A stretch of 64,000 nucleotides of DNA. It comes from Candidatus Saccharimonadales bacterium. Its GTDB lineage: Bacteria > Patescibacteriota > Saccharimonadia > Saccharimonadales > EFPC-124. A program made the position numbers and the translations under genes. The first letter of the stretch is position 1. The number at the start of each line of letters is the position of its first letter. The DNA lies in assembly GCA_050730875.1 (NCBI GenBank), contig JBOHNX010000001.1, positions 13,827-77,826 of the forward strand, in the 5' to 3' direction. The notes beneath the pieces are model-generated. The model did not search any database. It saw nothing but the letters and a program-made list of their open reading frames with translations, and was not told the DNA's origin. Shown here in pieces: positions 12,701 to 42,597 of the stretch.

Positions 12701-13570
12701 ATGAAACAAACAATCACCGTCCGAGCCATTATAAAAGAGGACCAAAAGATTCTCTTGTTGCGGCGTGCGACCGGAAATCCACTTTACCAAAACCTGTATG
12801 AATTACCCGGTGGCAAAGTTGATTTTGGCGAGGATCCAAAAGCGACTATCCATAGAGAAACATTCGAGGAGACGGGGAGTGAGATAGAAACACTTCAACT
12901 CTTCGACGTATATTCCCAAATAGATCCGCATGATACCGACCACCAATACTTATACGTTATATTTCTTGCAACGTTAACTCCTCATAGCAAGATCGTTCTA
13001 AGTTCTGAACATAATAAGTATGCATGGAAAAGATTGTCAGAAATACAGCTTTCAGAAATAACTGAATGGACGCGTATTGCGCTACAACTAGAAGGCGAAT
13101 CGCCTGAAGAACAGATTGAAAAAACAGAGATTCAAAAAGATATTGATGTTCTTCCTACATCAAAACATGCGCGCGTTGTTATTTATGCGGACGGCGGATC
13201 ACGTGGTAACCCAGGTCCTTCAGCCTCAGGTTTTGTGATTCAGGACGAAAAAGAGCAACTTGTGTTTGAAGGTGGCAATTATCTAGGTATAACAACAAAT
13301 AATCAGGCAGAGTATCAAGCAGTAAAGCTGGCTCTCGAAAAAGCGCTTGAACTCGGTGCGCGCGAGGTGAGCTTCCGTATAGATAGCCAGTTGGTCGCCA
13401 ACCAGTTAAATGGAATCTACCAAATTAAAAACCGTGATTTATGGCCAATTTACACGCGTATCAAGGAATTGGTAACCAAATTCGACAACGTAACTTTCAC
13501 CCATGTGCGACGCGAGTTTAATAAAGAAGCCGACGCAATGGTCAACAAAATACTCGACGAGCATAAGTAG
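12701..13570 (+). CDS. NUDIX hydrolase - RNase HI fusion protein
   Basis: The N-terminus has a Nudix box (GGKVDFGEDPKATIHRETFEETG). The C-terminus is RNase H type 1 (YADGGSRGNPGPSASG...NNQAEYQAV...RIDSQLV...NKEADAMVN). Confidence 0.8.
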   Translation: MKQTITVRAIIKEDQKILLLRRATGNPLYQNLYELPGGKVDFGEDPKATIHRETFEETGSEIETLQLFDVYSQIDPHDTDHQYLYVIFLATLTPHSKIVLSSEHNKYAWKRLSEIQLSEITEWTRIALQLEGESPEEQIEKTEIQKDIDVLPTSKHARVVIYADGGSRGNPGPSASGFVIQDEKEQLVFEGGNYLGITTNNQAEYQAVKLALEKALELGAREVSFRIDSQLVANQLNGIYQIKNRDLWPIYTRIKELVTKFDNVTFTHVRREFNKEADAMVNKILDEHK

Positions 13571-16772: not shown

Positions 16773-17149
16773 GGGGCTGAAATAGCTTCGACGATGGACC
16801 TTTACATGTTATCTGGCAAGCCGGTCGCGCATATCGTTACAGTGCGCACCATTTAAGTGTAAAAACTTTTGTACAGCGAGTAGCTGACGCATTCCGCGTT
16901 CCTACTTTCGCACCAGCTGTAGCTTAATTGCGACAGCCGTCATCCATTTAGTGTCAGTCTAAATGGCGTGATGTTATTTACTGACTTGGATTTGTGTGCC
17001 CAGGCGAGCATGCACTTCGACATTTATCGCCAACCTCCCGCAACCTTTTGTGCATTTCGAGTCACGGGAGTTCTACTAAATGTACTAAGCTTGTAGAAGG
17101 ATAGTGTGTAACCCACCGGACCGGGGTGCGATACCCCGCAGCTCCACCA
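16773..17149 (+). ncRNA. ssrA: tmRNA
   Basis: The 5' end GGGGCTG pairs with the 3' end CAGCTCC-ACCA, including G3:U70. T-arm is GGACCGGGGTGCGATACCCCGC. The in-frame tag ends ...ADAFRVPTFAPAVA-TAA; the resume codon is uncertain. Confidence 0.9.
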
Positions 17150-17187: not shown

Positions 17188-18193
17188 GGCAGTATTTGTC
17201 TCAGCAATCAAAAACAACGGCCTGCGAGAAGCCGTTGTTCGTTTTTTTGCGTTTTTTGTTTTTGAGCACTTTTTTTATTCAAGTGCTACCCCTATAATAG
17301 TGTCCTGCTCAGGCAGTGTCAACAACTATTTTAGCTATGTGCAAAAAGTGTGGAAAACTTAAGCAGTATGTGTAAACGGCGCTTAGTCGTGTATCGTAAA
17401 TATTTTTTTTGCGGAATAACAAAACTACGCGGCGAAACATACGTACTGCTGCGCGTTAATGGCGACGTGCTTACTGGTTTAACATACCTGGATCGCTGGT
17501 AATTGCACTTGCATAGACGGCCTGCGCTTTCGTTCTGTGTACAATGCTATTTGCAATTACGCGGTGGTGCAATCGAAACAAAATAATTTATAAATCCGCG
17601 ATAATTTTCTGATTAGCCAAGCCGTGCCCTCGTGGACCATAAAAGAAAGACAATTTTGAATGCGGATGCACACGCTACGTTTACGTGCGCCAGTCGCACG
17701 TGTAATTTTAGAAATCTTGCAAATTTACACAAAGCTGGTTGTAGCGCGGTCGAAATGTCATGTCCGAAATGTGGATTCTAATGAAATTTCCAGCTGCTTT
17801 TTGTGTTCGAAAAATCACACCTGGAATGAGTGACTTGGCAAAAGAATGGTGGGTTGTTCCAGACGCCGGCAAATAAAACGGACTATTTTTATTGAGCATG
17901 TTGTTATCGCAATCGCAGCTTTTAGTTTGCCGCTATGTTCGAAATACGTAGTTACGGGGGATAGGACCAGGAAAAGGAGGCGAAGAGAAGACACTTTGTT
18001 GTTACTATAATAACGATAAATATGACATTTATCGCTGTATATATGACATCTTTACAGATCATAGTAGTGTTTATAACTACGAATAATCAACAAAATCTAT
18101 TGACCTACGCGCTTATGTTTGCTAAGGTGAGGGCAAGCTTTTGAAACAAATACCCAAAACAAAAATCGAAGGCTTGCACCTTTCTGGCGCCGG

Positions 18194-18278
18194 GATTTGG
18201 CGAACAACTTGGCAACTAAACCCATTAGTTGTCGTGACTTCGCCAAATCGACGTGCGCTACGTACGTTGTTTGGCGAA
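18194..18278 (+). promoter_or_regulatory. Leader with mutually exclusive helices upstream of the 18431 operon
   Basis: TTCGCCAAATC (18239-49) can pair with GATTTGGCGAA (18194-204, 11 bp). Alternatively it can pair with TTTGGCGAA (18270-78, 9 bp). A 10-bp hairpin follows, pairing 18319-28 with 18361-70. Confidence 0.35.
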
Positions 18279-18430
18279 TGCTAAACGACAATTCGTTCCC
18301 CCTTATGGGGTCGCCACGAGAGCGAGAAGCGCTACTTAAGTCTTACAAAGTTGAGCGGATTTCTCGCTCTGTGGCATATTTCTTTTTACGGCTATATTCT
18401 TTGCCTAAATCTTAGTACAGTAGGTGGTGT

Positions 18431-18832
18431 ATGGAAGAGTCTAAGCGTTTTGTACAGCGGTTAAGAGTGCCGGCACTCTATTTGTTACCGCTGTTTCTTT
18501 TTTTAATTATCATGCTTGTTTTAAACCTGACGAGCCCTCTTCAGGCAGGCCCAGCCGGCATATTGCTGGTGTTCGGGCTTTTTTATTTGTTTGCATGTAG
18601 CTTGTTTTATATAGCAACGCACATAGTCTTTAAAGTGTGGCGACTGGTTAAGGGCGTATCGCCCGCTCTGGAGCGCCGCACGTACTATCTGGTGAGTGTT
18701 ATTGCGCTGGGACCGATTTTTCTCATAGCGCTTAATACGCTTGGCGAGCTAAATATTCGAGAAGTTATACTCGTTAGCCTCTTAGTTGCCATTGGCTGCT
18801 TCTATGTACTGAAGCGAACTCGCATAGAATGA
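18431..18832 (+). CDS. Integral membrane protein (4 TM), unknown function
   Basis: 133-aa hydrophobic ORF. AGGTGG lies upstream of the ATG. Confidence 0.6.
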   Translation: MEESKRFVQRLRVPALYLLPLFLFLIIMLVLNLTSPLQAGPAGILLVFGLFYLFACSLFYIATHIVFKVWRLVKGVSPALERRTYYLVSVIALGPIFLIALNTLGELNIREVILVSLLVAIGCFYVLKRTRIE

Positions 18833-18881
18833 CGTATATCCGTTTTTTGGCATAAGCCTTGTGGTACAATTTAGCTTAGTT

Positions 18882-19295
18882 ATGGAGCCTAAATTGCCAA
18901 CACCAAACCCTTCTCCCGAGATGGGTCACTACCATCGGCCGGAATTGCCCGCAGCGCCCGAGAAGCCTGTAAGTAATACCCCCGAGCAACAACCTCACGC
19001 AGAGACGCATGAGGGGGGTACTCAGGCTGCGCAAAGCGGACCAGCGTTACCCGCACCGCAAGCGCCCAGCGCACCGCAAGCGGCAAGTCCGGTAACGCAG
19101 CAGTCGACTACCGATAACACTCCGTTGAGTGCTGCCGACGACGAAGTAATAGAAAAAGAATGGGTCGAAAAAGCTAAGGATATAGTTAATCAAACAAAGT
19201 CGGATCCATACGCTCAGGAAAAAGAGGTTAGCAAACTCCAAGCCGACTATATTAAGAAGCGATACGGGAAAGAAATTAAGCTAGTTAGCGACTGA
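18882..19295 (+). CDS. Pro/Gln/Ala-rich protein with a conserved-looking charged C-terminal domain
   Basis: The ORF track gives 18861-19295; ATG at 18882 is the preferred start. The N-terminal half is low-complexity. The C-terminus reads EKEWVEKAKDIVNQTKSDPYAQEKEVSKLQADYIKKRYG. Confidence 0.5.
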   Translation: MEPKLPTPNPSPEMGHYHRPELPAAPEKPVSNTPEQQPHAETHEGGTQAAQSGPALPAPQAPSAPQAASPVTQQSTTDNTPLSAADDEVIEKEWVEKAKDIVNQTKSDPYAQEKEVSKLQADYIKKRYGKEIKLVSD

Positions 19296-19299
19296 CGAC

Positions 19300-22200
19300 A
19301 TGACAAATTTGCTGATAGGTTTCATCATTGGTACAACCTTTCTGCTCCTCTTTCTGTATGTTGGCTATTGGCAGTATCGTAAGGTATTGCGCGAAGCAAA
19401 GAACTACGAGCGTGGACTTAAAATGGTCCCGCTGCTTATTCATCTGCCTCCCTCGAGCGACGACATTGAGGCAGGGGGTCGGGATGCGCGAGATATTGCC
19501 GAGGAAGCTATTTCTCAGGCGCAGACCATGTATAACATTATCTCGAGTACGGCCACCAAGGGCTTTAAGAGCAAACTGTACGGCCAGCGTCACCTCGCGT
19601 TCGAGATTGTCGCAAGCAGAGGGCTTATCCATTATTACGTCGTCGTGCCACTGGTTCTGCTCGATGTTATTAGGCAGGCGGTTATAGCCGCGTACCCCAC
19701 TGCCAGATTAGAAGAGTGTGAAGAGCACAACATTTTTAGTCCAGTTGGAAAAATTAGTGGGACAATTGGTGGTGAGCTTACGTTGAGGAAAGAATTTAGC
19801 TTCCCGATCGCAACCTACCAAGAGACGAAACGCGATGCAATGCAGGCAATATTGAATGCTCTTTCGACCCTAACAAAAGAAGACGGGGCTGCAGTCCAGA
19901 TTTTGCTAAGGCCGGCCCACGAAAAATGGACAAAAACTTCGCTGGCTAGAGCAGGCAAGATACGAAAGGATAAAGGTGTTAAGTCGGGGGTGGCGAGTGT
20001 GCTTTCCATGAAAGACCTAGCGGAGGCGCTTTGGAAGCCGCCGGAGACGAAAGATGTCAAACCTGAAGATAAACAACTAAGTTCACTAGAGCAAGCAATT
20101 GTTGATGCTGTCGAAGATAAAACCAGGTATCCTGGTTACGAGATACTTATACGCATTATAGCCTCATCGAATACTGCGGTGCGTTCACAGGCTATCCTAA
20201 AGAACATCGTTGCAGCTTTTTCTCTCTTTGATTCACCAAGCAAAAATGGTTTTAAATTCTCGCTCGCAAAAAATGTTGAGCAATTCGCTACTTCATTTAT
20301 ATTTCGTTTCTTTCCCCAGGAAATATCACAGAGCGTTTTGAACAGTGTAGAACTTGCAACAATATTCCATTTTCCAGACCAACGCAACACGCCTACCTCA
20401 CAGGTTCAGCGACAAGCGTCCAAGCAGGTTGATGGGCCGTCGCAAATGCTCGATCAGGGCGTGTTGTTTGGATACAACCTGTTCCGGGGTGTAAAGAAAG
20501 AGATACGTCTAGGTGATACCGACCGACGCAGACATGTCTACATAATTGGTCAGACAGGAACTGGTAAATCAGGTCTTTTGGAGAACCTCGCCTTGCAAGA
20601 CATGCTGGATGGCAAAGGCTTTGCCTTTGTTGATCCGCATGGTGATTCCGCCGAACGCCTGTTGGGCATGGTGCCAAAAGAGCGGGTAGAGGATGTCATT
20701 TACTTTTCTCCTGGTGATATGGATCACCCCATGGGGCTGAACCTATTTGAGTACAAGACACCTGACCAGCGCGACTTTTTGGTTCAGGAAGCTATTGCGA
20801 TGCTGTATCGGCTTTACGACCCTGGCCATACGGGCATCATAGGGCCACGCTATGAAAACTGGTTTCGTAATGCCGCATTAACAATCATGAGTGACCCGGC
20901 TGGAACAAGCTTTATTGATGTACCACAAGTATTCAATGACAATGACTTTGCGAAAGAAAAGCTCAAACACGTCACCAACCAGGTCGTGCTCGATTTTTGG
21001 AACAAAGAAATGGCACAGACTAGCGACTATCATAAGTCAGAGGTACTTGGCTGGTTTGTGAGCAAGTTCGGTGCATTTTTGTCCAATGACATGATGCGCA
21101 ACATTATTGGGCAAACAAAATCTTCATTTGACCTCCGAGAGATAATGGATAACAAGAAGATACTGCTAGTGAATCTGTCCAAGGGTAAGACAGGCGAATT
21201 AAATAGCCAGCTTTTGGGTATGATTTTTGTAATGAAATTCCAAGTTGCTGCTATGAGCCGCTCTGATATTCCCGAAGAGGAGCGAGTTGACTTCAGCTTA
21301 TACGTTGATGAGTTCCAGAACTTTGCGACCGAATCATTCGAAACGATTCTATCTGAGGCACGAAAGTATCGTCTGAGCTTGATCTTGGCTAACCAGTTCA
21401 TGACGCAGCTTAGTGACAAGATCCGGGAAGCAGTTATCGGTAACGTCGGTACAGTTATTTCTGGGCGAATAGGCACGACAGACGCAGAGCTGATGGCAAA
21501 ACGTTTTACGCCTACATTTGACGCAGAAGATCTCACGAAACTGCCAAACTTTGAGACGGTTGCTACGGTTATGATCAACAATGTGCCCTCTGCGCCGTTT
21601 AGCATGTCCCTAATACCACCTTTGGGTAAACCTAACCCACAGCTCGCAACTGCCCTTAAACGCTTGTCGTACGCGAAGTACGGGCGTCCACGCGCAAATG
21701 TTGAGCGGGATATATTTAAACGTCTTCGCGCAGGTGATGATGCACGTTCAGCACGCCAGGGTGCATTAAAGCGCCCATCGGACACTCAAACATCTACGGG
21801 GTCATCTTTCCTAGATGAATGGCTGGCAAAGCGCAAACAGCAGACGGCTACGGCCGCACCACCAAAACAGGCGCCAAAACCGCGGACTACCAGTCCTCAA
21901 ACTCCATCAACAGATGCGCAGAAGCCACTCGTTATGCAATCTGAGCCCACCAAAGCTGATGAGACTCCTCAACCAACACAACCGCAAACGCCACCACCAC
22001 ACAAACCTCTGTATGCAGATCTTCGATTAAAACGGCTCCAGGAACAGGGGATAGGAGGCAACGTTGCTTTTAACCAGCCATCGCAGCACAAAGCACCGAG
22101 CGTGCATGATTCGACAATGCTTGAAGAGGCGCTTGCAAGCACGGCCTCTAGTGACGTCATGAAGGATGAGCAAACGAAGCGTCAGGCAGAACCAGGCGAG

Positions 22201-22338
22201 CTGCAAGTGACGAAGGATAGTACGTCACAGAATGGTTCAACGAACGGCGTAGATGAGATTTATATTGATGTGCGGGGCAAACTACATCATAAGGACGAGG
22301 CGGATGATCAAAATAAACCGCAAACGCCGGTAAGCTAA
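19300..22338 (+). CDS. TraD/TraG/VirD4-like (type IV coupling protein-like) membrane ATPase with a long disordered tail
   Basis: 1012-aa ORF with these elements:
- N-terminal TM helix
- roughly 350-aa unknown domain ending ELATIFHFP
- Walker A GQTGTGKSG and Walker B-like LYVDEFQNF
- ARKYRLSLILANQ
- C-terminal P/Q/T-rich region of about 230 aa. Confidence 0.65.
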   Translation: MTNLLIGFIIGTTFLLLFLYVGYWQYRKVLREAKNYERGLKMVPLLIHLPPSSDDIEAGGRDARDIAEEAISQAQTMYNIISSTATKGFKSKLYGQRHLAFEIVASRGLIHYYVVVPLVLLDVIRQAVIAAYPTARLEECEEHNIFSPVGKISGTIGGELTLRKEFSFPIATYQETKRDAMQAILNALSTLTKEDGAAVQILLRPAHEKWTKTSLARAGKIRKDKGVKSGVASVLSMKDLAEALWKPPETKDVKPEDKQLSSLEQAIVDAVEDKTRYPGYEILIRIIASSNTAVRSQAILKNIVAAFSLFDSPSKNGFKFSLAKNVEQFATSFIFRFFPQEISQSVLNSVELATIFHFPDQRNTPTSQVQRQASKQVDGPSQMLDQGVLFGYNLFRGVKKEIRLGDTDRRRHVYIIGQTGTGKSGLLENLALQDMLDGKGFAFVDPHGDSAERLLGMVPKERVEDVIYFSPGDMDHPMGLNLFEYKTPDQRDFLVQEAIAMLYRLYDPGHTGIIGPRYENWFRNAALTIMSDPAGTSFIDVPQVFNDNDFAKEKLKHVTNQVVLDFWNKEMAQTSDYHKSEVLGWFVSKFGAFLSNDMMRNIIGQTKSSFDLREIMDNKKILLVNLSKGKTGELNSQLLGMIFVMKFQVAAMSRSDIPEEERVDFSLYVDEFQNFATESFETILSEARKYRLSLILANQFMTQLSDKIREAVIGNVGTVISGRIGTTDAELMAKRFTPTFDAEDLTKLPNFETVATVMINNVPSAPFSMSLIPPLGKPNPQLATALKRLSYAKYGRPRANVERDIFKRLRAGDDARSARQGALKRPSDTQTSTGSSFLDEWLAKRKQQTATAAPPKQAPKPRTTSPQTPSTDAQKPLVMQSEPTKADETPQPTQPQTPPPHKPLYADLRLKRLQEQGIGGNVAFNQPSQHKAPSVHDSTMLEEALASTASSDVMKDEQTKRQAEPGELQVTKDSTSQNGSTNGVDEIYIDVRGKLHHKDEADDQNKPQTPVS

Positions 22339-22340
22339 CG

Positions 22341-22907
22341 TTACCGTTTGCCTCTAACCATCACACGCAGGAGATCGATTGCCACGCCAAGCACCCAACC
22401 GGCGACAAAGGCCGCAATTGTTTCGAAACCCGATAGGGCAAACCCTAGATGACGTGCAAGCAAATAGAGTGCCGTAACTATAATAAATGCGGAAATGCTG
22501 CCGCTTAAAATCGCATTAGGGCGAGCCACTGTGCTGCCCGCTACGTCGCTAACACGTTCTACTAGGGGTGCGTGTATAAATTTACTGAACGTACGCGCAC
22601 TTGGTGATAGCTCTTCTTGTACCCGGCGCATGGTTTGCTTGTAGGCGGTCTTGCGCTGAGATTTTGAAGCGGTGGGGGGCGCAGATTCGACTGGTGTTTG
22701 TTCTTGTTCGCCAGCGCCGCGTTCTTTGCCCGATCTTGCTTCTTTTGCAGCTTCTACTCGTGCGCGCTGGGCGAGGTCTTCCAGCTTTTCTGGTTGGCCT
22801 TCCTGGGCTTCGAGCCGCTCTTTTAACTCAGCTGTACGTTCACCAGCTGCCCGCTCTAGGGCTTCAGTGCCTCTTTCTGAGCCTGTAATCCGTTCTGGAT
22901 GCGCCAT
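22341..22907 (-). CDS. Membrane protein with a charged coiled-coil-like N-terminus and 2 C-terminal TM helices
   Basis: 188-aa ORF downstream of, and on the same strand as, the LPXTG protein gene. Its stop lies 2 nt from the convergent stop at 22338. Confidence 0.55.
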   Translation of the reverse strand: MAHPERITGSERGTEALERAAGERTAELKERLEAQEGQPEKLEDLAQRARVEAAKEARSGKERGAGEQEQTPVESAPPTASKSQRKTAYKQTMRRVQEELSPSARTFSKFIHAPLVERVSDVAGSTVARPNAILSGSISAFIIVTALYLLARHLGFALSGFETIAAFVAGWVLGVAIDLLRVMVRGKR

Positions 22908-22919
22908 ATGTTACCTCTT

Positions 22920-24827
22920 CTAGATCGTACCAGTGTTAAATTCTTTGCGTATAATTCGGACCTCTTTATTCATTTGCTTACTACGAGCAAAGAAATAGGT
23001 GACGGTCATCAACAGCGAACCAGCAAAAATCATGTTTGCTCCAGGACCAGTTGAGGGGAGTTGTTTCACGGCAGATTCGACAGCTTTCTCGGGGGGACAC
23101 TGTACATTAATATCGATGGTGTTACCGTACGAGTTTGTCATAACGCAGTTGTACGATGCCGGATCGTTAGCGGCGCGTGGCGTTGCGGGAATTACTTCCT
23201 TCAGCTGAACTACGAAGCGCCGTGTGTCTGTACCCTGAGCGCCCAATTTTACATCACCCCAGCTAATTATTTTCTTTTGTTCATCGAATGTTCCGCCGCC
23301 ACTATCTATAAGGTTGGCATATTCAAGTACGTCGCTAAGGTTTTCTTCGACTTTCGTAGTAGTATCGGCGCCACTTAGATTCGTAGTATAAATAGTAAAC
23401 TCGATCCTATCGGAAGCTTGAGCAGTAGTACCGTTGGCGTTGGCTAGTTTTTGCGAGAGATTCTTTGCTTCTTTTGACTGGCTAATTTTCGACACACAAT
23501 CTTCATCCTTTAGCCATAGAGTAGGCTCATAAGGGCATGGCTGACAGTCTGGGTGGCCGACTGGCAATGTTGGATTGTACTTACATTTATCGACGGATGC
23601 AATGCGCACGGGTTTTGTACAATCAGCACTTTCGCGATCACCAAGCGATGTTTTTACTACAACCCTCGCTGTATAATCGCCTGAACTCCTGAGGTCGATT
23701 ATTTCCGATGTATTGCTTAGGGAAGAGGATGTGACAAACTTTTCGTAGATCTTTTTACCACTTTTGTCAGTTACGATGTATGTATATCCTGTTATGCTTG
23801 CGCCTTGTTCGGCTCTTGCCGAAGCTGAGAGACTAATTCGAGTTCGGTCCACGAGATTAACTTTCAGAGCGCTACATTGAGCAAGTGGTGTCTGCGTTGG
23901 TACGCAATTGCCGGGAATAGACACTGTATTGTCGAACTGCACAGTAGGCTGGTCCCAACCAGGGAGTGGTTGCATGACGCCCCACACAGTAACTGGGCGA
24001 TTTAACTTCTGATACTCAGCCGGTACCGAAAAGTTAAAGCCATAGCCCCCACCAAGAGGGGAGTTAGGTGTGGCTTGGTCGGCGACGATAGGGCCGTATT
24101 GCTTGCCTTTACCGGGAGGACCGTCAAAGAATAGGTATACTTTTACGCGCAGATCTTTTTGTCGTTCATCGTAGGCGTAACCTTGTATGGTTTTGCAACT
24201 AGCGGTAATAAAATGAGCCTTTGGTATAGGAGTTACATTGTGTTTGATTTGTAGGTTGCCGCATTTGCGCATAATCGAAAACCAGCCCATCTTCGCAGAA
24301 TGACCGATGTACGAGTCGTAACAATTGACTCTATTATTAACGTCATCGAAACGGTACAGAGGAACTGAATAGAATGTAGAAAAGCCACCGGTTTGTCGAG
24401 GTACTTTGTGCGCCAGCTCGCCTTCAGCAGTGGAATAACGGTGCTGCCTACCAAAGCTTATTATCGAGTGATCGCTCGAACACACGTACACTACTTTCGT
24501 ATCGAGTTTTGCAAGTTCCGACCTCGTGATGCCAACATAATCCATAAGGTCTTTAAAGTCGTTTTGACCTTTAGCACCAGCATCGTAAACGTTCATTATT
24601 TCCTGTACGGAAGAAACACCGCCCTTAATGATGTCTGAGCCACTGCTGGCCACTGCTTGTTCGGGTGGGCTAAAGACAGCAAAAGATTGCACTACAATAG
24701 CTAGCGCCGTAAAGATAAGTCCCAATCGGCGTGTAGCCTGCTCCTTACGCAACCGTCTTGCGTAGAAACCAAGTTGTCCAACCAGTGCCGGGCTAAAGGG
24801 CAGGCTGGAAACAAGTTTCCGAAACAT
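22920..24827 (-). CDS. Large surface protein with an N-terminal signal-anchor and a C-terminal LPXTG sortase signal
   Basis: 635-aa ORF. The C-terminus is LPSTG, then a hydrophobic stretch (ANMIFAGSLLMTVTYFF), then ARSKQ. There is a Cys-rich central segment (CKYNPTLPVGHPDCQPCPYEPTLWLKDEDC). Confidence 0.7.
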   Translation of the reverse strand: MFRKLVSSLPFSPALVGQLGFYARRLRKEQATRRLGLIFTALAIVVQSFAVFSPPEQAVASSGSDIIKGGVSSVQEIMNVYDAGAKGQNDFKDLMDYVGITRSELAKLDTKVVYVCSSDHSIISFGRQHRYSTAEGELAHKVPRQTGGFSTFYSVPLYRFDDVNNRVNCYDSYIGHSAKMGWFSIMRKCGNLQIKHNVTPIPKAHFITASCKTIQGYAYDERQKDLRVKVYLFFDGPPGKGKQYGPIVADQATPNSPLGGGYGFNFSVPAEYQKLNRPVTVWGVMQPLPGWDQPTVQFDNTVSIPGNCVPTQTPLAQCSALKVNLVDRTRISLSASARAEQGASITGYTYIVTDKSGKKIYEKFVTSSSLSNTSEIIDLRSSGDYTARVVVKTSLGDRESADCTKPVRIASVDKCKYNPTLPVGHPDCQPCPYEPTLWLKDEDCVSKISQSKEAKNLSQKLANANGTTAQASDRIEFTIYTTNLSGADTTTKVEENLSDVLEYANLIDSGGGTFDEQKKIISWGDVKLGAQGTDTRRFVVQLKEVIPATPRAANDPASYNCVMTNSYGNTIDINVQCPPEKAVESAVKQLPSTGPGANMIFAGSLLMTVTYFFARSKQMNKEVRIIRKEFNTGTI

Positions 24828-41076: not shown

Positions 41077-42597
41077 ATGGAAAAAGCATCCAGTCCAAAA
41101 GAAGCGAAAGCAGTAGATCTACAAGAACTCTCGCAAGAGCAGTTGTCTGTAATTGTAGAAAAAGCCGACCAAATTGATACTTCCGAGAGCAAAACTCCTA
41201 CACTAGATAAGCGAAGCATGTTGGGTGAAGAGCTAGGGTTTCCAGCTGCTCACAATCTTTCGAATCAAGAGGTGGACGCCTTTGTTGATAGCGCTCGAAC
41301 CCGTAGCGAAGAGCTTATTCACGAGGCTAAACGATCTGAATTCTCGCACATTGTAGAGGCTGCCGAGAAAGCAAACTCAATAGCCGATTTACGTACGGCA
41401 CTGAGCGAAAAATACGGTTTCCGCAAAATCTACGAGATGAACAATCTAGAGCTCAAGGCGTTCGTAGCAGATGCTCGAAAGAAGCTTAAGGAGCTAGACC
41501 AGCCGGATAAAGCCGGTACTGAACCAAGTGCTGAAGCCCCCGTTACCACTACTGAACCGCAGCCGGTCGACGTGCCACACGAATCCCAATCAGCTGAAGT
41601 CCCAGCTCCAGAGGCGACACCAGCAGGTGAGTCGCGTACTTCTGGCGTTCATATCGGCGAAGAGGTTGTGCAACCCAAAGAACCAGTTGCTACTGAAGCT
41701 CCTACACAAGAGATTCCTACACCTAAGCCCGAGGAAGAGGAAAGTAAAAAACCAGAGGCAGAAACCACCCTTCTTGGTGGACGCGAAGCGGCCACATTCA
41801 CTGTGGATGAGGTTGAGGACCTTCTTGATCTGCGAGAAACCGTTGAGGCTAGGGTAGCGGCGCAAAAGGAAAGGCTAGCTTCCCAGCTTAGGGAATCGGG
41901 CGAATCAGGTGTCGACGAAGAGTACTTACGAGAACGAGCTGTAAGCAAAATTATTCGGAAGAGCTCCGGTGATAAAAAGGTGCTGTTGGAAGCGCTCAAA
42001 TTGAGTACAGATGCCTTCAACAAGCTATTCGAGAGTCAGCTAAAGAAACTTGGCCGTTTGCCACTTACACCTGAAGAGGCTAAGAAGCGCGAGCCAGCCG
42101 ACTACAACATTGAAGAGGTGTGGGATATTGTCGATTTTCGCAAGGAAGTGGAAGCAGAGTTGCAAAAAAAGAAGACAAGGGAAGAGCTAGGACGTAGGAT
42201 TGAAGCTGAGCGCCGGCAAACGTTCGCAAGGAACGTTCCGGGTCTTGGCCTTGAAGAACAAATTCGTCATGCTGCGCAACAGAAATTGCGCGAAGAAATA
42301 GTGAAGCGCCTGAAGGATAGCCTCGATCCAGCTGACGCTACGAATCTGAATTTGGACCACTGGGCAATGGCGAGCGACGAAGAGTTTAGCAAAGCTTTCA
42401 CTGATCAGCTGAAGATGATCAAAGAAACACGCGAAGAAATCGAAAAAGAGGCTCAACAAGCAGAAAAAGAAAAAGCCGAACGAAAAGAAGAGCGTAAGAA
42501 GCGATGGGCACGTCGTTTTGGTCTCTTTGCACTCAGTAACCTCAAGTGGGATAAAAAGTCTGGCACCTACCTTATGCGCGATAACCTGCTAAAATAG
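41077..42597 (+). CDS. Glu/Lys-rich repeat protein, unknown function
   Basis: 506-aa ORF. It has two pairs of internal repeats, a central P/E/T-rich linker and a basic-hydrophobic C-terminus (RKKRWARRFGLFALSNLKW). Confidence 0.6.
   Translation: MEKASSPKEAKAVDLQELSQEQLSVIVEKADQIDTSESKTPTLDKRSMLGEELGFPAAHNLSNQEVDAFVDSARTRSEELIHEAKRSEFSHIVEAAEKANSIADLRTALSEKYGFRKIYEMNNLELKAFVADARKKLKELDQPDKAGTEPSAEAPVTTTEPQPVDVPHESQSAEVPAPEATPAGESRTSGVHIGEEVVQPKEPVATEAPTQEIPTPKPEEEESKKPEAETTLLGGREAATFTVDEVEDLLDLRETVEARVAAQKERLASQLRESGESGVDEEYLRERAVSKIIRKSSGDKKVLLEALKLSTDAFNKLFESQLKKLGRLPLTPEEAKKREPADYNIEEVWDIVDFRKEVEAELQKKKTREELGRRIEAERRQTFARNVPGLGLEEQIRHAAQQKLREEIVKRLKDSLDPADATNLNLDHWAMASDEEFSKAFTDQLKMIKETREEIEKEAQQAEKEKAERKEERKKRWARRFGLFALSNLKWDKKSGTYLMRDNLLK

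Follow-up and report, generated by a model that had tools for sequence, protein, structure and literature searches.

A strongly constrained chromosomal coupling-protein ATPase of the DUF8128 subtype adjoins an independent LPXTG surface module in Saccharimonadia

We analyzed a 64,000-nucleotide (nt) stretch of DNA from a Candidatus Saccharimonadales bacterium (contig JBOHNX010000001.1 of assembly GCA_050730875.1, positions 13,827 to 77,826 of the forward strand; hereafter, the window), focusing on five adjacent genes. The plus strand encodes a small protein with four transmembrane (TM) segments, a small Pro-rich protein that we call ProR, and a 1012-amino-acid (aa) ATPase; the minus strand encodes an LPXTG surface protein and a protein with two TM segments. 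The locus consists of two independent modules that are neighbors only through the high synteny of Saccharimonadia. The first comprises ProR, the ATPase and, provisionally, the 4-TM protein, and represents a chromosomal, strongly constrained type IV coupling protein (T4CP) of the DUF8128 subtype, which is essential in its syntenic counterpart. The second, formed by the LPXTG and 2-TM proteins, is a variable, dispensable cell-surface module with an immunoglobulin (Ig)-like stalk. On balance, we lean toward the view that the ATPase is an exapted essential T4CP, a membrane-anchored motor that couples to the essential, relaxase-less type IV secretion system (T4SS) that Saccharibacteria encode elsewhere.

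An earlier reading of this DNA from its letters (the sequence-only reading) had described the five open reading frames (ORFs), and ORF calling in the window recovered each of them at the predicted coordinates; their strands, TM counts, LPSTG motif, and Cys-rich module were likewise borne out by the ORF calls and hydropathy. The parts of the ATPase are as follows.

19300..22338, plus strand: 1012-aa membrane-anchored T4CP-family ATPase (Pfam, PDB relatives, syntenic counterpart SEML1_0142)
19309..19371, plus strand: single N-terminal TM helix, aa ~4-24 (hydropathy)
19387..20484, plus strand: DUF8128 domain (PF26449), aa 30-395 (precomputed Pfam)
20485..21669, plus strand: T4CP motor domain, aa 396-790 (Pfam, motifs)
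20548-20571, plus strand: Walker A motif GQTGTGKS, aa 417-424 (sequence)
21298-21318, plus strand: Walker B motif LYVDEFQ, aa 667-673 (sequence)
21385-21411, plus strand: T4CP-like LANQFMTQL motif (sequence)
within 20485..21669, plus strand: helical insertion in the motor, aa ~488-603, a candidate all-alpha domain (low-confidence model)
21670..22335, plus strand: disordered C-terminal tail rich in P, Q, T, S, and A, aa 791-1012 (composition)
21802-21837, plus strand: tail motif SSFLDEWLAKRK, just after the motor (conserved alignment columns)
22252-22290, plus strand: tail motif DEIYIDVRGKLHH, near the C terminus (conserved alignment columns)

The ATPase is a member of the DUF8128 subtype of T4CPs, and not an FtsK, HerA, or VirB4 protein. 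Its two Walker motifs are intact, and the TraD/VirD4-like P-loop ATPase that the sequence-only reading had proposed is supported by Pfam matches above cut-off to T4SS-DNA_transf (PF02534; 35 bits versus 20.1) and TraG-D_C (PF12696; 26.4 versus 22), with VirD4-like and TraD models as the best NCBIfam matches. A profile of 55 homologues searched against the PDB found DotL/IcmO (3.5e-6) and TrwB (2e-4) as the closest relatives, and none other at E<0.01. TrwB_AAD_bind reached 16 bits against a cut-off of 20.5 in the window protein, and it is above cut-off in distant DUF8128 relatives. The combination of PF26449, PF02534, and PF12696 is precomputed for ATPase homologues, and NCBI names an identical protein, from a metagenome-assembled genome (MAG) of Candidatus Saccharimonadales, [quoted passage not shown] Foldseek ranked Cagbeta and TrwB first, followed by VirB4 and HerA, the query being a low-confidence AlphaFold2 (AF2) model of aa 1-800 built from 55 close homologues (predicted local distance difference test [pLDDT] score, 47). 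In this model, residues 2-39 form a helix (pLDDT 70-88), and the helices of aa 488-603 lie between core strands (pLDDT 55-72). The sequence following the TM helix is rich in K and R, and the bulk of the ATPase is therefore expected to be cytoplasmic under the positive-inside rule.

Three other family assignments were tried and rejected. There was no FtsK family match at E<0.1 in Pfam, and one TM segment only, which does not fit FtsK/SpoIIIE; VirB4 gave no Pfam match, and TIGR00929 only E=0.013; for HerA, DUF87 reached 17.4 bits against a cut-off of 23.2. A role as replacement for FtsK was also rejected, as Southlakia epibionticum carries a canonical essential FtsK (SEML1_0096). The sequence-only reading had raised the prospect of the ATPase clustering with FtsK/HerA housekeeping clades; we saw no such clustering, T4CPs being closest and canonical FtsK separate. 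With FtsK/SpoIIIE and HerA, the ATPase shares the superfamily, a weak DUF87 match and, for SEML1_0142, a DPAM match to an FtsK P-loop domain; it differs from FtsK/SpoIIIE in having no FtsK_SpoIIIE, alpha, or gamma domain matches and no 4-TM N terminus. Like the T4CPs VirD4, TrwB of R388, TraD of F, DotL/IcmO, and Cagbeta, it has a P-loop motor of the FtsK-HerA-TraG superfamily, an N-terminal membrane anchor, and a C-terminal extension that likely serves partner binding (compare TraD-TraM and the DotL adaptors). It departs from them in having one TM helix instead of the usual two, a DUF8128 domain of ~365 aa between anchor and motor, and a motor better conserved than gyrB across species, and in being a chromosomal core gene, remote from relaxase and mating-pair-formation (MPF) genes, that is essential for growth in its syntenic counterpart.

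DUF8128 (PF26449) accounts for what the sequence-only reading had listed as an unknown domain of about 350 aa. Precomputed Pfam annotation places it in P0001, the identical protein, and in each of the 120 homologues listed. In a library of 1.84 billion cluster representatives, DUF8128 occurs in 1315 proteins, and it sits at ~30-400 in the full-length proteins among the best 150 of these; T4CP/DUF87-type ATPase domains lie C-terminal to it in 9/9 distant representatives. DUF8128 appears to be an alpha/beta cytoplasmic domain that always stands N-terminal to a T4CP motor. A DUF8128 profile found no relative among PDB sequences, with only spurious matches to designed repeat proteins, and a literature search for PF26449/DUF8128 found no papers. 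Identity with the VirB4 N-terminal domain, or with a VirB3/4-like fusion, was rejected (hhalign probability 0.09 versus the VirB4 N-terminal half).

Plasmids provide a functional context for this architecture. A 64-kb Bacillus subtilis plasmid (NZ_OX419581) encodes a 913-aa "DUF87 domain-containing protein" that is colinear with the window ATPase through DUF8128 and motor (BLASTP E=6e-38, 23% identity over aa 99-774). Its gene lies directly 5' of one for a replication-relaxation family protein, near TcpD, TcpE, and an AAA_10 VirB4, and it occupies the place of that plasmid's coupling protein; unlike the window ATPase, it has no ProR-like or 4-TM gene upstream and no long P/Q-rich tail. In the Haladaptatus halobius megaplasmid NZ_CP085339 (locus L083, 8860-12809), DUF8128 is a separate 355-aa ORF directly 5' of a 932-aa T4CP-like ATPase, which is the split ("Rosetta stone") form of the fused Saccharibacterial and Bacillus proteins. 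These gene contexts point to DUF8128 plus motor as a T4CP subtype used in conjugation.

The tail varies much more than the rest of the ATPase. Farther relatives of the same clade (46-57% DUF8128 identity) have P/A/S/Q-rich tails of ~620 to ~1,200 aa, and these long-tailed proteins (P0244-P0257; up to 2006 aa) all terminate in a GE(V/I)(Y/F)(V/I)D..GNV-type motif, the counterpart of DEIYIDVRGKLHH in the window protein. Across these differences in length, the tail retains both this motif and the one that follows the motor (SSFLDEWLAKRK). By analogy with TraD-TraM, the tail of the ATPase looks like a tethered recruitment peptide.

We compared the neighborhood across 80 GTDB species of Saccharimonadia, which share the order L20-L35-IF3-ComM, 4-TM, Pro-rich, ATPase, 2-TM, LPXTG, and gyrB-gyrA-PAP2. 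The five cluster ORFs are kept in 72-80/80 species, with absences mostly at contig ends, and are therefore not chance ORFs. Median identities over the 80 species were as follows.

ATPase motor: 81%, the highest in the neighborhood
L20: 76.6%
gyrB: 76.5%
LPXTG leader (aa 1-62): 76%
gyrA: 72%
DUF8128: 68%
IF-3: 66%
LPXTG C terminus: 46%
2-TM protein: 43%
Pro-rich protein: 41%
4-TM protein: 34%
ATPase tail: 34%

The motor is thus under extreme purifying selection. Coupling proteins of this family are typical of conjugative plasmids and integrative and conjugative elements (ICEs), and one could picture the locus as the decaying remnant of an ICE or other mobile element that left behind a T4CP and an adhesin. 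This idea, which we consider next to negligible in probability, is refuted by conservation and essentiality: the genes occupy the same chromosomal place in the 80 species and in about 20 metagenome loci, the GC content of the cluster matches that of its flanks, and Pfam found no relaxase or other mobile-element family in 35 window ORFs, a set that includes every ORF of at least 290 aa. Intact catalytic motifs, 81% motor identity, and essentiality are the opposite of decay.

To these species we added 80 further loci (L084-L163), found by searching metagenomes with a profile built from distant DUF8128-T4CPs, for 160 loci in total. About 20 of the 80 are of the window's type. The remaining ~55 belong to other lineages of the Candidate Phyla Radiation (CPR), with XerD-like, FtsB-like, ribonucleotide reductase (RNR)/NrdR, and DnaX genes as housekeeping neighbors, and homologues of the four companion genes were not detectable in these ~55 loci. 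The co-conservation for which the sequence-only reading had proposed to look therefore holds across the 80 Saccharimonadia species and is lost at larger evolutionary distance. As a separate observation, the DUF8128 ATPase in the other CPR loci lies near a XerD-like recombinase in 14 and near an FtsB/DivIC-like gene in 10, which could reflect nothing more than synteny within these lineages, or might point to a connection with division or segregation.

The upstream partner gene of the ATPase is fixed. ProR lies directly 5' of it in 79/80 species and in 17/19 ProR-positive metagenome loci, the other two having no identified ATPase ORF. Where an upstream gene is present, a small (≤220 aa) same-strand gene stands just 5' of the ATPase in 51/67 loci, and 17 of the 51 are detectable ProR homologues. 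Homology of ProR to the small upstream genes of other CPR lineages was not found by jackhmmer, and the best hhalign comparison gave E=0.011 with a probability of 3.8%. The features of this upstream region are as follows.

18431..18832, plus strand: 4-TM small membrane protein, 133 aa (ORF, four hydrophobic segments, own Shine-Dalgarno sequence AGGTGG)
18862..18870, plus strand: candidate extended -10 promoter TGgTACAAT for the ProR and ATPase unit (conserved sequence box)
18882..19295, plus strand: Pro-rich small protein ProR, 137 aa from ATG (start conservation)

The N-terminal part of ProR is P-rich and disordered, and its C-terminal region of ~50 aa (aa ~81-130, IEKEWVxKAK...DPY...LQxDYxKRYG) is helical and conserved; ProR has no TM segment by hydropathy and no family match in Pfam or NCBIfam. 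The ORF caller placed its start at GTG 18861 (18861-19295); the start is most likely ATG 18882 (MEPKLP...), judging from the conserved alignment. Among the 45 species listed, most carry a TGnTAyAAT box ~6-12 nt 5' of the codon that starts MEP...; in the window this box ends 11 nt before ATG 18882. A -10 box so near the start codon predicts that ProR has its own promoter and a near-leaderless mRNA. The transcription unit is thus probably the Pro-rich gene plus the ATPase, with the 4-TM gene possibly on a separate transcript, so that the 4-TM, Pro-rich, and ATPase operon of the sequence-only reading holds as to strand and order and less well as to a single transcript. The 4-TM protein has no Pfam or NCBIfam match; a homologue stands 5' of the ATPase in 74-76/80 species.

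Published transposon sequencing (Tn-seq) data for S. epibionticum ML1 (Wang et al. 2023, Cell, PMC10633639, Tables S1 and S2) bear directly on the locus. ML1 has the same genes in the same order and on the same strands, namely SEML1_0138 (YifB), SEML1_0140-0142 (plus), SEML1_0143-0144 (minus), gyrB, gyrA, a divergent PAP2 gene, and 16S, with gene lengths near-identical to those of the window (354, 420, and 3060 nt on the plus strand; 582 and 1608 nt on the minus strand) (PMC10633639). The counterparts below were assigned by exact synteny and gene lengths; calls are essential (ES), growth defect (GD), or nonessential (NE), and insertion counts are given from input onward (PMC10633639).

SEML1_0140, 4-TM counterpart: NE/GD/GD, growth defect; insertions 8 to 8/7/5
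SEML1_0141, Pro-rich counterpart: GD/ES/ES; insertions 9 to 0
SEML1_0142, ATPase counterpart, "TraM recognition domain-containing protein": ES/ES/ES; insertions 114 to 11/11/9
SEML1_0143, 2-TM counterpart: NE; insertions 14 to 14/14/14
SEML1_0144, LPXTG counterpart, a DUF11 protein: NE; insertions 58 to 33/48/48

The ATPase counterpart is therefore essential. A ProR promoter of its own agrees with the tolerance of transposon insertions in the 4-TM gene and not downstream of it. SEML1_0144 is shorter than the window LPXTG protein (535 versus 635 aa). The same tables list a second T4CP-like gene, SEML1_0293, as nonessential (Table S1) and the canonical FtsK, SEML1_0096, as GD/ES/ES (PMC10633639). 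SEML1_0140-0144 are not discussed in the text of that paper (PMC10633639).

The reading that we lean toward joins this essential ATPase to a secretion system described in the same work. ML1 has an essential T4SS, SEML1_0006-0019, described as "lacking recognizable coupling and relaxase proteins" (PMC10633639), and among the rows listed in Table S2 for the T4SS cluster (SEML1_0007-0015) there is no second P-loop ATPase (PMC10633639). The sequence-only reading had concluded that the locus is not a standard T4SS; this is right for the locus itself, where Pfam found no VirB4, VirB6, relaxase, or pilin family in the 35 window ORFs, and it leaves aside the essential T4SS found elsewhere in Saccharibacteria. 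In the mechanism that we propose, the ATPase would be a cytoplasmic hexameric motor like other T4CPs, anchored by its one TM helix. Recruitment of partners or substrates would fall to DUF8128 and to the disordered tail with its two short motifs; the small Pro-rich protein, made from the same transcript, may serve as adaptor or chaperone of the ATPase; and the motor would feed substrates to the MPF-FATA-like T4SS (SEML1_0006-0019 in S. epibionticum). With relaxases generally absent, a protein or another macromolecule is a likelier substrate than relaxase-bound DNA.

A 2025 survey (PMC12102498) places this in a wider setting. It reported 5,713 VirD4-like T4CPs in 2,918 of 3,035 Patescibacterial genomes, and it described "the" ML1 t4cp as nonessential and possibly exapted (PMC12102498). 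That description fits SEML1_0293 (NE), not SEML1_0142 (ES/ES/ES), and the essential gene appears to have been overlooked.

Several points weigh against coupling to the T4SS. No virB4 was found within 10 kb of the ATPase in the 160 loci (phmmer with a single Bacillus VirB4 query, of limited sensitivity), so that the T4SS link is something that we infer; in the survey, too, only 148 of the 5,713 Patescibacterial T4CP homologues lie near virB4 (PMC12102498). T4CP homologues are also reported in more genomes than VirB4 is (2,918 versus 2,417 of 3,035; PMC12102498), which would fit a T4SS-independent role, although ~2 paralogues per genome could also explain it. A motor conserved beyond gyrase is unusual for a secretion accessory. 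The essential call for the ProR counterpart rests on 9 input insertions only and may stem from polarity on the ATPase gene, and the window genes were matched to those of ML1 by exact synteny and gene lengths and not by sequence alignment. Lastly, AF2 modeled the ATPase poorly (pLDDT 47), and the DUF8128 fold, the all-alpha domain, and the hexamer remain predictions.

As the main alternative, the ATPase might be a housekeeping translocase independent of the T4SS, that is, an exapted stand-alone motor for DNA or protein that works with a small partner and not via a VirB4 channel, in roles such as chromosome or envelope handling in budding division or the uptake of host macromolecules. We regard this as possible but rather unlikely. 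The lack of a virB4 neighbor and the excess of T4CP homologues over VirB4 both fit it, as do a motor that is conserved above gyrB and essential in Tn-seq, and t4cp exaptation was raised by the survey itself (PMC12102498). Its neighbors are housekeeping genes in every lineage seen (gyrBA, comM, and IF-3 in Saccharimonadia; XerD-like, FtsB-like, RNR/NrdR, and DnaX in other CPR loci), but such neighbors are uninformative in mostly housekeeping genomes of ~1 Mb. A single TM helix cannot alone form a membrane conduit, and septal DNA pumping is already covered by the canonical essential FtsK. DNA uptake is not the essential function either, since a comEC deletion is viable. We know of no characterized T4CP-family protein that acts without a T4SS channel.

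A broader proposal takes in both of these possibilities: the DUF8128 ATPase and the small gene that nearly always precedes it might have given up conjugation and become an essential machine found almost throughout the Patescibacteria, acting either as the coupling or energizing component that makes the Saccharibacterial T4SS essential or as a T4SS-independent translocase. We put this forward tentatively and regard it as rather unlikely. Within such a machine, the variable disordered tail of 200-1200 aa with its conserved end motif would be a tethered recruitment signal, and the T4SS may move host-derived or effector macromolecules.

In Saccharibacteria, which live as obligate epibionts, the locus bears on why the T4SS is essential and what energizes it. 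SEML1_0142, which is essential along with its small upstream gene, is a concrete candidate for the missing motor or substrate receptor, and the Walker motifs, DUF8128, the two tail motifs, and the partner protein offer handles on it. The Tn-seq calls and the existence of Patescibacterial T4CP homologues far from virB4 (catalogued in 2025) were already public; what is new here is that the essential paralogue is recognized as this DUF8128-T4CP with a dedicated partner gene, that the locus resolves into two independent modules, and that a promoter and two tail motifs are conserved.

The features of the second module, all on the minus strand, are as follows.

22341..22907, minus strand: 2-TM protein (p188), 188 aa, with a charged, probably disordered N-terminal region of ~100 aa (ORF, hydropathy)
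22353-22517, minus strand: two C-terminal TM segments of the 2-TM protein (hydropathy)
22920..24827, minus strand: LPSTG surface protein, 635 aa (ORF, motifs)
24642-24827, minus strand: leader of the LPXTG protein, 62 aa, with TM segment at aa 34-55 and then AVA/SS (hydropathy, conservation)
23496-23621, minus strand: Cys-rich linker of the LPXTG protein, Cys cluster at aa 403-444 (sequence)
23103-23486, minus strand: DUF11-like beta-sandwich of the LPXTG protein, aa 448-575 (AF2 model)
23046-23060, minus strand: LPSTG motif, aa 590-594 (sequence)
22923-23045, minus strand: C-terminal TM segment and conserved cytoplasmic tail, aa 595-635 (hydropathy, conservation)

The 635-aa protein has the features expected of a sortase-anchored LPXTG surface protein, as far as motifs and hydropathy can tell. 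Between leader and anchor lie a variable N-terminal module and Ig/fibronectin type III (FnIII)-like domains, and the LPSTG motif is followed by a hydrophobic stretch and then by basic RSKQMNKEVR.... Its Pfam matches are below cut-off (DUF11, 17.7 versus 24.6 bits; Gram_pos_anchor, 14.1 versus 20; a weak DUF7927), and PF01345 (DUF11) or PF25549 is recorded for many homologues. An AF2 model (pLDDT 78) consists of all-beta tandem sandwiches, for which Foldseek returned FnIII tandems, complement MG domains, and PrgB Ig-like domains, all of them generic matches. Gain or loss of middle domains makes orthologues vary in length between 260 and 767 aa, and in 9/67 of them an LPx[TSA]G motif was not found. 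No sortase was present among the window ORFs scanned with Pfam; S. epibionticum encodes two (Wang et al. 2023, PMC10633639 tables). The 2-TM protein has no family match in Pfam or NCBIfam.

In its signal-anchor with AXA site, tandem beta-sandwiches, and LPSTG followed by a hydrophobic segment and basic tail, the protein resembles the LPXTG Ig-like/DUF11 proteins of Gram-positive bacteria (compare the PrgB stalk). Unlike them, it has a leader conserved at about the level of gyrB, a conserved tail of ~20 aa after the C-terminal TM segment, and a constant 2-TM partner, while the mature middle is variable. The conservation of the leader (a 33-aa cytoplasmic n-region plus TM segment), and likewise of this tail, suggests a role beyond that of an ordinary Sec signal or sortase retention signal, perhaps one comparable to that of YSIRK-type leaders. 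A search for other proteins with this leader gave one match per locus in the loci examined, and so provides no support for a general sorting signal.

The sequence-only reading had tentatively paired the ATPase operon with the LPXTG operon as plausible host-contact machinery. We consider this very improbable, and the model is largely refuted. In its favor, the five genes are adjacent in 72-80/80 Saccharimonadia species, PrgB Ig-like domains are among the Foldseek matches, and a dedicated partner in the cytoplasm could explain why the leader and cytoplasmic tail of the LPXTG protein are so unusually conserved. There is also a precedent in pCF10, where the LPXTG adhesins PrgA/B/C are encoded with a T4SS. 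The adjacency is functionally uninformative, however, because gyrBA, comM, and IF-3 are equally syntenic, and the resemblance to Ig-like domains is of a generic kind. Four metagenome loci lack the LPXTG/2-TM pair; in L088, L092, and L110, gyrB follows the ATPase after ~100-220 nt, and in L144 it does so after ~800 nt. In L091 the pair is inverted as a unit. ProR and the ATPase stay in place. Since they are lost or inverted together, the LPXTG and 2-TM genes form a two-gene module. The two modules have opposite Tn-seq phenotypes (ES versus NE), and the plus- and minus-strand units converge, so that they cannot be co-transcribed. The tempting link between ATPase and adhesin is therefore removed as unsupported.

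The convergent junction itself had been described as a palindrome with no terminator. The stop codons at 22336-22338 (plus) and 22341-22343 (minus) do both fall within TAACGTTA, with 2 nt between them, and no terminator-like site was found at 22336-22343. Convergent stops spaced by 2 nt produce a palindrome with 4/16 possible spacers, and the junction varies in relatives, with an 11-nt overlap in L082 and gaps of 0-550 nt elsewhere. The TAACGTTA junction is trivial, and the palindrome was rejected as a functional element, being unconserved in relatives.

The cluster is flanked by IF-3, YifB/ComM, and tmRNA genes on one side and by gyrBA and rRNA genes on the other. The rest of the window consists of housekeeping genes: ThrRS, MiaA, RNase P RNA, L20/L35/IF-3, YifB/ComM, tmRNA, gyrBA, and an rRNA operon, and further S1, IF-2, PriA, RecJ, FtsA/FtsZ, RNR, IleRS, and ParA.

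Between the tmRNA gene (16773-17149) and the 4-TM gene, we noted a noncoding element of ~150 nt at 17205-17360 that is kept in ~45/80 species and gives tblastx matches in all frames. Two hairpins fall within it: a bidirectional terminator with compensatory changes, which probably terminates ssrA, and a further, small one. The element's invariant CCTATAATA and TGTCAAC boxes, 17 nt apart, read as a predicted minus-strand TTGACA-17-TATTAT promoter, and the element is a candidate small RNA, with a putative minus-strand transcript of ~75-90 nt next to ssrA. It has no Rfam match, and the unit is inverted in L019. It is followed at 17400-18430 by ~1 kb 5' of the 4-TM gene without a credible ORF and without conservation. 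Such an ORF-free gap of ~1 kb is unusual for a reduced genome of ~1 Mb; comparable gaps occur in L082 (7557-9139) and in S. epibionticum (133060-135914, with one 150-nt ORF only).

Some minor observations concern other parts of the data set. MAG ELA402 contains the comM...ATPase block twice, on contigs L049 and L075, each copy with ~69% identity to the window, and this bin probably mixes two strains or species. A 506-aa ORF at 41077-42597 (plus strand), between the IF-2 and formyltransferase/deformylase genes, matches no Pfam family at E<0.001. The 289-aa ORF at 12701-13570 (plus strand) is a NUDIX hydrolase domain fused to an RNase H/RVT_3 domain, and the same fusion is present in L082.

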